DNA of 64,000 nt from sequence record NC_106597.1. One strand, given 5' to 3'. Made by a program: the position numbers and the translations under genes. The notes beneath the pieces are model-generated. The model ran no database searches. It saw only the letters and a program-made list of their open reading frames with translations, and was not told the origin of the DNA. The DNA comes from Escherichia phage BB1. Shown piece by piece: positions 12,809 to 64,000 of this stretch (positions are counted from its first letter, which is position 1; every line of letters begins with the position of its first letter).

Positions 12809-13786
12809 ATGAGAATATTATTTAGTGCTGATCATCATATCAAACTAGGACAAGATAAAGTTCCAAAGGAATGGCAGAAGCGTCGCTTCCTGATGCTAGG
12901 AGAACGGTTAAATGATATATTCCATAATCATAACTGTGATCTTCATATTGCTGGTGGTGATATACTTGATGTTGCCGACCCGTCGTCAGAAGAAATAGAG
13001 CTGCTTGAACAGTTCATGTCAAGACTCGACCATCCAGGCAAAATCTTTACTGGAAATCATGAAATGTTAACTAAAACCATTTCATGTCTATATCACTATG
13101 CAGGAGTTATTAATAAAGTAACTAGTGGAAAGTGGGAAGTAATTACCAAACCATATCGTTCTCCTGAATTTGATATTGTTCCGTATGATGAGATCCATAA
13201 ATCTAAGTGGAAACCATCTGAATCAAAACTATGTTTCACGCATGTTCGCGGTGAAATCCCTCCGCATGTAAAACCAGAAATTGATCTAACTAAGTACAAC
13301 TGTTATGATACTGTAATTGCTGGCGATTTACATTCTTATACTAATAGCCAGACTATCGGATCTACTAGACTCCTCTACCCAGGGTCTCCATTAACTACAT
13401 CGTTCCATAGAGAACGCACAAAAGGTACAAATGGTTGCTTTATCATTGATACCGACACATTAAAAGTAGAATGGATTGAACTCGGTGATTTACCACAACT
13501 GATTCGTAAAACAATCGGAGCTGGTGAAGAGATGGAACCTAGTGATTATGATCGTGTAGTCTATGAAGTTACTGGTGACGTTGTTCAATTAAAGTCTATC
13601 AAAGACTCTGATTTATTAGATAAGAAGATTAACCATCGAGTTACTAAAGACGCTAAGTTAAATCTTGTTGATCTTGATATGTTAGGCGAACTTGAACTTT
13701 ACTTCCGTGAAGTCGAGAAGCTATCTCAAGGCGACATTGATAGAATCTTGGCTAGAGCTGCGAAATATGTCAAAGATTACAATTAA
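12809..13786 (+). CDS. SbcD/Mre11-like nuclease
   Basis: Calcineurin-like phosphoesterase motifs in order: ADHH, GGDILD, GNHE, GDLH. Confidence 0.75.
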   Translation: MRILFSADHHIKLGQDKVPKEWQKRRFLMLGERLNDIFHNHNCDLHIAGGDILDVADPSSEEIELLEQFMSRLDHPGKIFTGNHEMLTKTISCLYHYAGVINKVTSGKWEVITKPYRSPEFDIVPYDEIHKSKWKPSESKLCFTHVRGEIPPHVKPEIDLTKYNCYDTVIAGDLHSYTNSQTIGSTRLLYPGSPLTTSFHRERTKGTNGCFIIDTDTLKVEWIELGDLPQLIRKTIGAGEEMEPSDYDRVVYEVTGDVVQLKSIKDSDLLDKKINHRVTKDAKLNLVDLDMLGELELYFREVEKLSQGDIDRILARAAKYVKDYN

Positions 13787-60838: not shown

Positions 60839-61372
60839 TTATTTAAGTCCTCTAAAGTAGGTAAGGGTTTTGTATGATCAAAAGTTTCTATAACAGCATT
60901 AGGCCCATGTAGTTCTAAACGTAGTTCATTAGCTCTTTGAACTGCCAACTCTAAATCTAGATACCTAAAGTAGCCTCCGTGTACTGTAATGCTTTCGGCG
61001 CTTCTGGCCTGGACTCTCCATTGTTGTCGATCTTTTTTTCCAGGTAACTCCTAAGTACCCCGAATTAGATTGAGCGATTTTGCTACGATTATTCTCTTGG
61101 GACGTACAATCTTTTAAATTACACCATCTATTATCTTTTCTTATATTATTTAAGTGGTGTACTAGATTTGGAATATACCCCTCCATGTACAAAAAGGCTA
61201 ATCTATGGGCTGCATATCTTTTTCTATTTATCCCAATAAATATATAACCATCCTTATCAGGACTACCAGCAATACTACCTGCTTTACCTCGTCCTCTACT
61301 GACTTTCCTTATAAACTCGCCCGTTTCCGGGCGGTATTCAAATAACTCTTTTAATCTTTCTTGTGTTAGCAT
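60835..61372 (-). pseudogene. HNH-AP2 homing-type endonuclease interrupted by a frameshift at an A7 homopolymer
   Basis: HNH motif (HHLNNIRKDNRWCNLKDCTSQENN) in track ORF 60965..61372; a 1-nt shift at the A7 run (+ strand T7, about 61033-61039) restores an AP2-like domain (GVTWKKDRQQWRVQARSAESITVHGGYFRYLDLELAVQRANELRLELHG) ending in an ATGA overlap at 60835. Confidence 0.5.
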
Positions 61373-62154: not shown

Positions 62155-62313
62155 TTTGTTTCCTTCTCATCAATTTATAAAGTAATTATACAGAAACTTA
62201 AGCATTTTAGCAAATAAAACTTTTAATTAAAATGCCTAGTCCTGTACCAATAGCAATACAAATGATTATAAGTATTGCTACTACTTGTATGATTCGTTTA
62301 ATAATACCCATGA

Positions 62314-62835
62314 TTAGACATTTAACATCCAACTAGTTTTATCATGAGAGGTATATTTACCACTCATTATGTCTTCCAGCCGTACTGGTGATTTTGCATA
62401 CTCAACGCAAACGTTAATATAACGAGGGTCTCCCATTAACTCAAAGTGAGTATGCCCGTGTAAGTTCTTCTTGCCCCTTAACTCTTCTGGATGTACTGGA
62501 GCATGGGAAAGCCAAAAGTTTTTATACTTAACTAGGGATTGTACATTATCTACTACTCCTACTAAGTCTTTGAAAGATAATCCTTCTCGCTCTAAGTCGT
62601 GGTTCCCCAAAACTAATGTAGTTCTAACATTGCTAAAGAGTTTTTCGAACTTCTCCAAACCATTTCTAGATACAAATGCATCTCCTAAAATATAAAATAC
62701 TGTACGCTTATCTTTCATGGATGTAATAGTATCCATAATAAATTCATCATGCTCTTCCATAGTAGAGAAGATTGGTCTGAATTTAGTAATATTTGCATGT
62801 CCTAAGTGGAGATCACTCCAAAAGCAAACTTTCAT
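62314..62835 (-). CDS. metallophosphoesterase (small calcineurin-like phosphoesterase)
   Basis: Motifs DLHLGH, GDAFVSRNG, GNHD, GHTH. Confidence 0.6.
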   Translation of the reverse strand: MKVCFWSDLHLGHANITKFRPIFSTMEEHDEFIMDTITSMKDKRTVFYILGDAFVSRNGLEKFEKLFSNVRTTLVLGNHDLEREGLSFKDLVGVVDNVQSLVKYKNFWLSHAPVHPEELRGKKNLHGHTHFELMGDPRYINVCVEYAKSPVRLEDIMSGKYTSHDKTSWMLNV

Positions 62836-63710
62836 TAAAGAATCCTCTGTATGCCACAGCTATCTTCTCGAAGCGTGGTAAATGTTGTAATTTTGCCAGT
62901 TTCATCATTAACTTGCGCAACCGTCAACTGCCCGTTGAAAACACCGCCAGTATCTAGGTAAACACGATTCTGGTATAAAATAGGGTAAGGTACTCCAGTA
63001 TGCCCATGAAACACAAAGTCTACCCCACTAACTGGGGGTACTTCTACCATGTATTTCTCTTTAAACCCTGCATAACGCTGGAAATGTGAGTGTTCTTCAC
63101 CATTTTTAGCTAAGTGAAAACCTATTTCTTGGATTACATCTCGATCCCATAAGTATGGCTCAACATGGTATCCAGGATGGTCATGTGGGTCTTCCTTAGC
63201 TGTTTCTACTTGTGCAATAAGGCTATCCCATACTGGGGTTTCTACTTCGTTACCGCATTCTTTGTACGTAAAAGATACACCACCATGAACAACACCATAC
63301 TTTTTACCACGATGCAATACAGTCAGAAATACTGGCATTTTTTCAGCCATGTCTTCAGCAATATTTTTAATGGTATCTGCATCTAGTTCATTCATGGCCC
63401 ACATACCACCGTTATACATCCAGTTAGCCCAATCTCCCACAATCATAAATTGGTCATGATTACCACGGACACTGATAAAGCGTGGATTATACAGGAATTT
63501 GGCTAAAACTTGTAGGTTCTGCGTGCCTCGATCAATTAAATCCCCTACGCATACAACGCAGTCTTTCTTGCCGTTATAGCCAGCTAATTGTAGTGCATCT
63601 TCTAGTAAATCGTTGCATCCATGAATATCCCCAACAAAGAATAAGTTAACATCATCAGGTACTACTAGTGTTTTATGCACATTAAATTCTTTTTTCATAA
63701 TTATTCCCAA
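62835..63710 (-). CDS. serine/threonine protein phosphatase (PPP family)
   Basis: GDIHGC, GDLIDRG and GNHD motifs in canonical order. Confidence 0.7.
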   Translation of the reverse strand: MGIIMKKEFNVHKTLVVPDDVNLFFVGDIHGCNDLLEDALQLAGYNGKKDCVVCVGDLIDRGTQNLQVLAKFLYNPRFISVRGNHDQFMIVGDWANWMYNGGMWAMNELDADTIKNIAEDMAEKMPVFLTVLHRGKKYGVVHGGVSFTYKECGNEVETPVWDSLIAQVETAKEDPHDHPGYHVEPYLWDRDVIQEIGFHLAKNGEEHSHFQRYAGFKEKYMVEVPPVSGVDFVFHGHTGVPYPILYQNRVYLDTGGVFNGQLTVAQVNDETGKITTFTTLREDSCGIQRIL

Positions 63711-63946
63711 ATAACATTTAAAATAGTTGTACCATAATTATTTGATAGTTTGAGAGTATAACCCTCTTTATTGAGGGCTTTTATAGCTTCATAACTAATT
63801 TCGTCACGATTAAGCTGTACAAAAGAACCTCCAATCTCGACAGAAGATACTATCCTCCGCTTAACCCATCTATACGTTTTCTTTCGGCTCTTGAGAAGAG
63901 CAGCTCTATTAACTCTAGCTAAACGTTTTGCTTGCTCTGCTAACAT
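63701..63946 (-). CDS. hypothetical basic protein
   Basis: 81-aa ORF overlapping the phosphatase start. Confidence 0.4.
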   Translation of the reverse strand: MLAEQAKRLARVNRAALLKSRKKTYRWVKRRIVSSVEIGGSFVQLNRDEISYEAIKALNKEGYTLKLSNNYGTTILNVIWE

Positions 63947-64000
63947 TTAATCCTCCTATCAATCTATATAAATATTATACCAAAATTTTTAGCAAAAAGC

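Follow-up and report, generated by a model that had tools for sequence, protein, structure and literature searches.

Lambda phosphatase (NinI; 1g5b) belongs, together with PrpA and PrpB of Escherichia coli, to a clade of PPP metallophosphatases. Lambda-type phosphatases are everyday laboratory reagents, yet we know of no account that explains what they do in phage biology. Nor do we know of a physiological substrate for lambda phosphatase itself; because of this, 'protein phosphatase' is a biochemical label and does not describe a role. Phosphodiesterase activity of the enzyme has been measured with bis-pNPP and 2',3'-cNMPs (PMC2190708). The phosphatase module of bacterial Pnkp, as in Clostridium thermocellum (4j6o), is also of the lambda-phosphatase type (PMC2190708).

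Smaller metallophosphoesterases have been described from several sources. The Aquifex aeolicus protein aq_1665 (PDB 1xm7) is a structural-genomics protein without known activity, and MPE/PdeM of Pseudomonas putida (6nvo) is a ligase-associated, Mn-dependent ssDNA endonuclease. In mycobacteriophages of cluster A, a metallophosphoesterase (A10ZJ24 gp48 and Bxb1 gp47) is stand-alone and early, has phosphodiesterase activity and is reported to play a counter-defence role via host DNA damage (PMC12287305).

In phage T5, genes of both kinds are present, and the reference record (NC_005859) labels T5.034 'phosphoesterase' and T5.035 'NinI-like serine-threonine phosphatase'. A recent genetic study of T5 is confined to pre-early (first-step-transfer) genes. 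No functional test of either T5.034 or T5.035 was found in the literature searched, nor was any information on their essentiality or expression timing.

Organization of the locus

The DNA analysed is a stretch of 64,000 nt from Escherichia phage BB1 (NC_106597.1), hereafter called the window. Over the 2.5 kb around the two genes of interest, it is 93-96% identical to T5-like Tequintavirus (Demerecviridae) genomes, and T5.034 and T5.035 are direct orthologues of the two genes. Order, lengths (522-nt and 864-nt CDS), flanking genes and promoters are all alike in T5 and the window, with a sequence divergence of a few percent only. The pair is already known, as the T5 reference record and many T5-like genomes carry annotated orthologues. 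The features of the locus, in the direction of transcription, are as follows.

63974..63982, minus strand: extended -10 promoter element TGgTATAAT upstream of the operon, read from the sequence
63701..63946, minus strand: first operon gene, 81-aa T5.036 orthologue, an ORF with an AGGAGGA Shine-Dalgarno sequence (PHROG 7354, E=2.7e-54)
62835..63698, minus strand: phosphatase gene, T5.035 orthologue, 287 aa, lambda-phosphatase-clade PPP metallophosphatase
62314..62835, minus strand: small phosphoesterase gene, T5.034 orthologue, 173 aa, compact binuclear metallophosphoesterase of the aq_1665 (PDB 1xm7) family, PHROG 547
62207..62332, minus strand: small hydrophobic ORF, last operon gene, 34-41 aa depending on the start chosen (PHROG 21849, E=9e-18)
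62185..62213, minus strand: next sigma-70-type promoter, TTGCTA-17-TATAAT, matching 10/12 consensus positions; downstream boundary of the operon

The open reading frames of the window thus include, as an earlier note on the DNA studied here had described, two adjacent metallophosphoesterase genes lying back to back. They are on the minus strand, at 62314-62835 (173 aa) and 62835-63698 (287 aa), with one correction at the start of the phosphatase gene. A program-made ORF (62835..63710) begins at a TTG at 63710, which was rejected as a start because it falls within the 3'-terminal part of the gene upstream. The true start is the ATG at 63698, in agreement with the 864-nt CDS of VEc33 and T5. At the junction of the two genes, the phosphatase stop and the start of the small gene have one base in common (TAATG, 62837-62833), and the small gene is preceded by an AGAGGA Shine-Dalgarno sequence 7 nt upstream.

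The -35 hexamer belonging to TGgTATAAT would lie at the very end of the window or past it, and hence the consensus scan gave no score for this promoter; the T5 reference has an annotated promoter at the corresponding site, directly ahead of T5.036. Similarly, the TTGCTA-17-TATAAT promoter coincides in position with T5 promoter P-F 30. The small hydrophobic ORF, which overlaps the 3' end of the small phosphoesterase gene, is annotated as a 40-aa protein in VEc33 and is unannotated in the T5 record. Transcription from the T5-type promoter would be expected to yield a joint transcript of four genes, which encodes first the 81-aa protein, then the phosphatase followed by the small phosphoesterase, and last a small membrane peptide.

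The 81-aa protein has no Pfam match, and its orthologues are labelled 'major head protein' in some records. The candidacy of this protein and the small hydrophobic ORF as conserved partners of the two enzymes was rejected, since both are undetectable in the distant T5-like loci L003 and L004. A PADLOC search gave no defence-family match for the phosphatase, the small phosphoesterase or the 81-aa upstream protein.

In T5, the two orthologues map to 16.9-18.3 kb, approximately 7 kb past the 10.2-kb first-step-transfer terminal repeat, in a leftward block that is dense with annotated promoters. This map position, taken together with the temporal gene classes of T5, places the pair in the early left arm, in agreement with the early region to which it had been assigned.

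The larger protein is a phosphatase of the lambda clade

The description of the larger protein as a PPP-family Ser/Thr phosphatase is borne out at the level of both sequence and fold. It matches Pfam Metallophos (E=5e-16) and PHROG 246, 'NinI-like serine-threonine phosphatase' (E=5.7e-91), and aligns with lambda phosphatase 1g5b in two stretches, query residues 18-154 and 221-264 (E=2e-31). The PPP signature motifs (GDxHG, GDxVDRG and GNH[ED]) are all present, in the form of GDIHG (23-27), GDLIDRG (52-58) and GNHD (79-82). Nine residues (D24, H26, D53, R57, N80, H81, H138, R186 and H233) are invariant in 39 homologues with identities down to 31%, and these map one to one onto D20, H22, D49, R53, N75, H76, H139, R162 and H186 of lambda phosphatase, which we take to be its metal ligands, phosphate-binding arginines and general acid. 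The correspondence includes the C-terminal ligands, H138, R186 and H233 being the equivalents of lambda H139, R162 and H186.

The AF2 model is confident (pLDDT 93.6) and has a lambda-phosphatase-like fold. In a Foldseek search its best match was 1g5b (E=1e-19; TM 0.81 normalised on lambda phosphatase), followed by PP5, PP1 and PP2A. In the sequence searches, hydrolases of the ApaH type, the phosphatase domain of Pnkp and eukaryotic PP1 matched this protein much more weakly than lambda phosphatase did. In the structural alignment, identity to lambda NinI is about 28%, with all metal- and phosphate-binding residues kept. The 287-aa protein is an enzyme of the lambda phosphatase/PrpA/PrpB clade of the PPP family.

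Within this clade, the protein differs from lambda phosphatase in several respects. It is longer (287 versus 221 aa), it has GNHD where lambda phosphatase has GNHE, and it is encoded in an early operon of a virulent phage, whereas NinI belongs to the lambdoid nin region. About 65 residues that follow the fourth metal-ligand motif (H138) and precede the fifth (H233) have no lambda counterpart. In the AF2 model this extra segment (approximately 155-220) is mostly helical, with four helices between 157 and 209, and in the 39-homologue alignment part of it is confined to the closer T5-like sequences.

More specific assignments were rejected. Among NCBIfam models, those for PrpA and PrpB match the protein best, but the scores (94 bits versus a cutoff of 326 for NF008516 and 77 versus 332 for NF007425) lie far below the equivalog cutoffs, as befits a member of the same clade that is not an orthologue. 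A bacterial Pnkp was discarded as well, the protein being single-domain and scoring 35 bits against a cutoff of 750 for TIGR04075. Likewise, it is not an ApaH symmetrical Ap4A hydrolase (58 bits versus 176 for NF001204; 35 versus 223 for TIGR00668), and ApaH chains in the PDB align only to its N-terminal 70-135 residues.

The earlier note had named two conceivable roles for early phage phosphatases, the reversal of host phosphorylation-based responses and the hydrolysis of signalling nucleotides; the present results neither lend support to these roles nor contradict them. The relationship to ApaH bears on the second, in the form that nucleotide signals or caps (cyclic nucleotides or oligonucleotides, Ap4A, Np4-capped RNA or alarmones, for example) are broken down by at least one of the two enzymes, which would blunt signalling-based host immunity or stress responses. 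In sequence and structure, ApaH-type Ap4A hydrolases are the next-best relatives of the phosphatase (9t9n, E=6e-9; 2qjc; NF001204, E=7e-16), and early expression would suit a counter-defence role. However, lambda phosphatase is far ahead of ApaH (112 versus 39 bits), and the ApaH model score is, as given above, well short of its cutoff. In addition, known phage hydrolases of nucleotide signals have other folds, namely the 2H fold in Acb1 and the metallo-beta-lactamase fold in Apyc1. We regard this suggestion as distinctly unlikely. Between a protein-phosphatase and a nucleic-acid role, sequence cannot separate for the 287-aa enzyme.

The smaller protein belongs to the aq_1665 family

The smaller protein is, as had been proposed, a calcineurin-like phosphoesterase. 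It matches Pfam Metallophos (PF00149) with E=9.6e-7 (29.9 bits versus a cutoff of 21.5) and PHROG 547 'phosphoesterase' with E=2.7e-55. All five metallophosphoesterase motifs (DxH, GD, GNH[DE], H and GHxH) were found, at D8-H10, G51-D52, G77-N78-H79-D80, H111 and G127-H128/H130, and D8, H10, H13, D52, N78, H79, H111, H126, H128 and H130 are invariant in 37 homologues. The same alignment revealed invariant residues specific to the family (H13, W108, P113, H115 and Y139). The AF2 model of the protein is confident.

When the family profile was compared with the PDB, aq_1665 (1xm7) was the sole match (E=7e-19), at 26% identity to the 173-aa protein, and this match stands out from other metallophosphoesterases. 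The protein is a member of the uncharacterised aq_1665 family, and the idea that it is a relative of the protein phosphatases was rejected; it is not a shortened copy of its neighbour. Since aq_1665 has no known activity, the match conveys family membership and no function. The family is found in at least 1,710 phage records, including T5-like, Kayvirus, Ackermannviridae-size, jumbo, Vibrio and Bacillus phages, among others.

Beyond 1xm7, the fold search with the model returned LpxH (11.3), the MPE nuclease (10.4) and MJ0936 (10.3), and it does not separate a nuclease from a lipid, nucleotide or generic phosphodiesterase. The structural neighbours include the small cap-less enzymes MJ0936 and YfcE as well as the cyclic-nucleotide phosphodiesterase Rv0805, and this would be in line with the breakdown of nucleotide signals considered above. 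Assignment to the PdeM/MPE ligase-associated endonucleases was rejected on a TIGR04123 score of 36 bits against a cutoff of 150, and no Lhr/ligase repair-operon neighbours were found in the window or related loci. The role described for cluster A gp48/Bxb1 gp47 was not transferred either. That protein is longer (255 versus 173 aa), and hhalign gave a probability of 11% over 14 columns covering the GHTH motif only; the two are unrelated beyond superfamily motifs.

Adjacency of the two genes

The association of the two genes was surveyed by scanning 80 viral and 80 cellular loci of the small enzyme for lambda-phosphatase-like genes, and 80 phosphatase loci for the small enzyme, in a neighbourhood of 6 kb on either side of each match. 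A lambda-phosphatase-like gene was found within 6 kb of the small enzyme at one of 78 non-T5 viral loci, and within 5 kb at one of 79 cellular loci.

Adjacency is essentially limited to T5-like phages, and even among these the two genes may be split by another ORF or lie apart, or the phosphatase may have no small enzyme nearby. Salmonella phage S130 belongs to the same genus; its phosphatase shares 96% identity with that of the window, its small enzyme only 54%, and a 96-aa ORF is inserted between the two genes. The genes are 6 kb apart in 114-kb Vibrio phages such as the unclassified D401 and 9 kb apart in Aeromonas phage APT65. A Klebsiella T5-like phage and two further T5-like loci (L180 and L181) keep the phosphatase and have no small enzyme within 6-9 kb of it. 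On these grounds, a conserved two-gene module was rejected.

Some observations run the other way. In two metagenomic T5-like contigs (L003 and L004), whose proteins are only 38-52% identical to those of the window, the two genes are immediate neighbours, the stop codon of one overlapping the start codon of the other. Close pairing was also found in Aeromonas phage LAh_8 (Lahexavirus), with the order reversed and two small ORFs between the genes, and on an alphaproteobacterial chromosome (locus L109). Because of the overlap in distant contigs and these two pairings, some functional link between the enzymes is possible. In its strongest form, such a link would mean that the two proteins form one complex, one being a partner or regulator of the other and the adjacency itself being functional, and the stop/start overlap in the window and the distant contigs, as well as the LAh_8 and L109 pairings, would fit. 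We consider this very improbable. The allele swap and inserted ORF in S130, the separations in D401 and APT65 and the absence of a nearby small enzyme in three T5-like lineages all speak against it. Furthermore, both proteins have full active sites, so that neither resembles a pseudoenzyme, and overlapping start and stop codons are frequent throughout this operon-dense arm in the VEc33 and T5 annotation. We conclude that the two genes lie side by side through lineage synteny within a gene-dense operon, and that they are neither a coupled module nor an obligate pair.

Genomic context of the small-enzyme family

Clustering of neighbouring genes at the 78 viral loci revealed that the leading recurrent neighbour of the small enzyme is a stand-alone P-loop kinase (Pfam AAA_33), which, among proteins of solved structure, is most closely related to T4 polynucleotide kinase and the kinase of C. 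thermocellum Pnkp. Several of the loci also contain a T4 Rnl1-type RNA ligase. At locus L037, genes for an RNA ligase, a stand-alone Pnk-like kinase and the small enzyme follow one another directly on one strand, and the same order of ligase, kinase and small enzyme recurs at L053 and L056. At L093 the small enzyme is followed by a T4-type Pnkp and then an RNA ligase, while at L058 a kinase-PPP-ligase fusion precedes the small enzyme. After loci were collapsed at 70% identity, 6 of 49 viral clusters outside T5-like phages (approximately 12%) and 1 of 51 cellular clusters had the small enzyme beside a Pnk-like kinase and an Rnl1-type ligase, these being raw proportions.

Other contexts were also observed. 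In Pseudomonas phage K4 and in Aeromonas phages, the small enzyme lies within replication or nucleotide-metabolism modules. Cellular genes of the family adjoin MutS in Verrucomicrobiales and an ArfB-like gene in relatives of Pseudomonadales, and both adjacencies look like lineage-specific synteny. No link to signalling systems was found in the neighbourhoods of the small enzyme at viral and cellular loci, which counts against the degradation of nucleotide signals. The kinase/ligase context, present in a minority of lineages, is a suggestive lead to nucleic-acid, possibly RNA, end processing by the small enzyme. As the sole contextual lead for this enzyme, it hints at such processing rather than at signalling nucleotides.

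The same context raises the question of whether both enzymes of the window heal damaged RNA ends, that is, tRNA or mRNA that host anticodon nucleases or toxins have cut or modified, as an early counter-defence. The chemistry would be the removal of 2',3'-cyclic, 3'- or other terminal phosphates. Several independent lineages have the small-enzyme family in RNA-repair cassettes (L037, L053, L056, L093 and L058), the lambda-phosphatase clade takes in the phosphatase module of bacterial Pnkp (4j6o; TIGR04075), and in three related jumbo-phage loci a T4-type Pnkp lies about 3 kb from a lambda-phosphatase-like gene. The hydrolysis of 2',3'-cNMPs by lambda phosphatase (PMC2190708) is in the same vein. 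The association is, however, confined to the six viral clusters of 49 and the single cellular cluster of 51 given above. The window and T5 also differ from the cassette-bearing phages in that no Pnk-like kinase or Rnl1-type ligase was found in the window or in the 9-70 kb interval of T5, even at E<=10, and a full RNA-repair pathway in T5 was rejected on this basis. Two further points count against RNA-end healing: the host ligase RtcB requires the 3'-phosphate that such an enzyme would strip, and the approximately 25 tRNA genes of T5 are a different answer to tRNA attack. RNA-end healing by both enzymes is accordingly an unlikely, if conceivable, explanation.

A more specific proposal is that the small enzyme (the T5.034 family, PHROG 547) is an unrecognised RNA 3'-end-healing or trimming enzyme. 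It would complete split cassettes of ligase, kinase and phosphoesterase in some phages and, in T5-like phages, would join the lambda-type phosphatase against phosphate-blocked tRNA or RNA ends left by host defence nucleases or toxins. We would put this forward as a speculative idea of low probability. If healing of RNA ends were nevertheless the true role, a physiological substrate would be at hand for both orphan enzymes and perhaps for lambda NinI as well.

Proposed functions of the two enzymes

The reading that we favour, and consider somewhat probable, is that the genes encode two independent early enzymes, a broad lambda-type phosphatase and a minimal nucleic-acid or nucleotide phosphoesterase, which are co-transcribed without forming an obligate pair. 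Judged from their sequences, both look catalytically competent. The analysis establishes their identity, the integrity of their active sites, their folds, the layout of the operon and their distribution; their metal use, substrates and biological role, as set out here, are what we infer from this.

By analogy with lambda phosphatase, D24, H26, D53, N80, H138 and H233 of the larger enzyme would hold two metal ions that activate a bridging water; the metal in lambda phosphatase is Mn2+, and the same may be expected here. R57 and R186 would hold the phosphate, and H81 would protonate the leaving group. The extra helical segment (approximately 155-220) probably shapes substrate choice. The main activity is most likely to be broad phosphomonoester hydrolysis on phosphoproteins, with weaker phosphodiesterase and 2',3'-cyclic-phosphate activity expected after the example of lambda phosphatase. 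The 173-aa protein, a minimal, cap-less metallophosphoesterase, would most likely hydrolyse phosphoesters of nucleotides or at the ends of nucleic acids.

There is nothing unusual about the gene pair itself, and its analysis confirms the existing annotation. What is new lies outside the window, namely the association of the small-enzyme family with RNA-repair cassettes. An enzyme of the aq_1665 type is present in more than 1,700 phage records without a characterised member. A defined substrate for either enzyme would therefore inform the annotation of very many genes.

Gene order and neighbouring ORFs

Relative to the T5 map, the window appears to be circularly permuted, an arrangement that we read from ORF sizes and the T5 gene order. 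Presumably, replication genes occupy the first part (1-17 kb, plus strand) and large late genes the stretch at 17.7-44 kb (minus strand); beyond the late genes, we assume a pre-early block and then the early left arm, which would run to the window end. No tRNA genes were found within the window. Four ORFs besides the phosphatase/phosphoesterase pair are listed below.

Neighbouring and related ORFs in the window
12809-13786, plus strand, SbcD-like protein, 325 aa
47402-49066, minus strand, ORF of 554 aa in the presumed pre-early block
60965-61372, minus strand, HNH homing-endonuclease ORF, 135 aa
63701-63946, minus strand, 81-aa gene, T5.036 orthologue, first in the operon

The HNH ORF may be truncated or frameshifted, as the annotated gene at the equivalent position in the T5-like phage VEc33 encodes 178 aa versus 135 aa here. 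The 81-aa gene carries the RefSeq name 'major head protein', derived via PHROG 7354, which is implausible because the gene is so short and lies in the early arm. Its product had no match in Pfam or PADLOC, and no conservation of the gene was seen when it was sought in distant T5-like loci.

The phage also encodes metallophosphoesterase-type proteins beyond the pair. The SbcD-like protein, which matches Pfam Metallophos, adjoins an SbcC-like ATPase. Judged by size and position only, the 554-aa ORF is a probable orthologue of A1; a search of Pfam with this putative orthologue gave no match. According to a 2026 preprint, A1 is predicted to be a metallo-phosphatase and by itself suffices to degrade host DNA.

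Gene neighbourhoods in other genomes

Several unrelated phage contigs encode an aq_1665-type phosphoesterase, the type of the small phosphoesterase in the window, together with a polynucleotide kinase and an RNA ligase of the T4 Rnl1 type, all three in a single strand-consistent cassette. These cassettes look like a split RNA-repair system.

Cassettes with phosphoesterase, RNA ligase and kinase
L037, 4422-6519, stand-alone kinase
L053, 3506-6558, stand-alone kinase
L093, 4986-7581, kinase of T4-type Pnkp
L058, 2891-6528, kinase within a kinase-PPP-ligase fusion

In three jumbo phage contigs of 340-360 kb (L185, L187 and L188), the lambda-phosphatase-like gene has, approximately 3 kb upstream, a Pnkp of the T4 type, which combines a kinase with a HAD phosphatase. 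Since all three belong to a single lineage, this proximity may be coincidental.

Among the 79 cellular loci with the small phosphoesterase, only one also has a lambda-phosphatase-like gene; it lies on an alphaproteobacterial MAG chromosome (L109:4803-6400), where the small phosphoesterase is immediately followed by the lambda-phosphatase-like gene. The flanks include a pentapeptide-repeat protein and a release-factor-2-like gene, together with what we take to be a putative IS66-type transposase.

Some T5-like sequences stand in public records under unlikely names. The record OR848346.1, 'Listeria phage LM 4-14-1', holds 7.6 kb of T5-like sequence that is 94% identical to the window, and the T5-like proteins P0126 and P0004 were deposited as 'Brucella melitensis metallophosphoesterase' and 'Enterococcus faecalis metallophosphoesterase, partial'. 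Contamination or mislabelling probably accounts for such names.

In Salmonella phage S130, the phosphatase and phosphoesterase genes flank a mosaic junction (L090, 2501-4234). The S130 phosphatase is 96% identical to that of the window, the phosphoesterase is a 196-aa allele with only 54% identity to its counterpart, and an inserted ORF of 96 aa separates the two genes. Thus, recombination shuffles the phosphatase and phosphoesterase genes independently within one genus.
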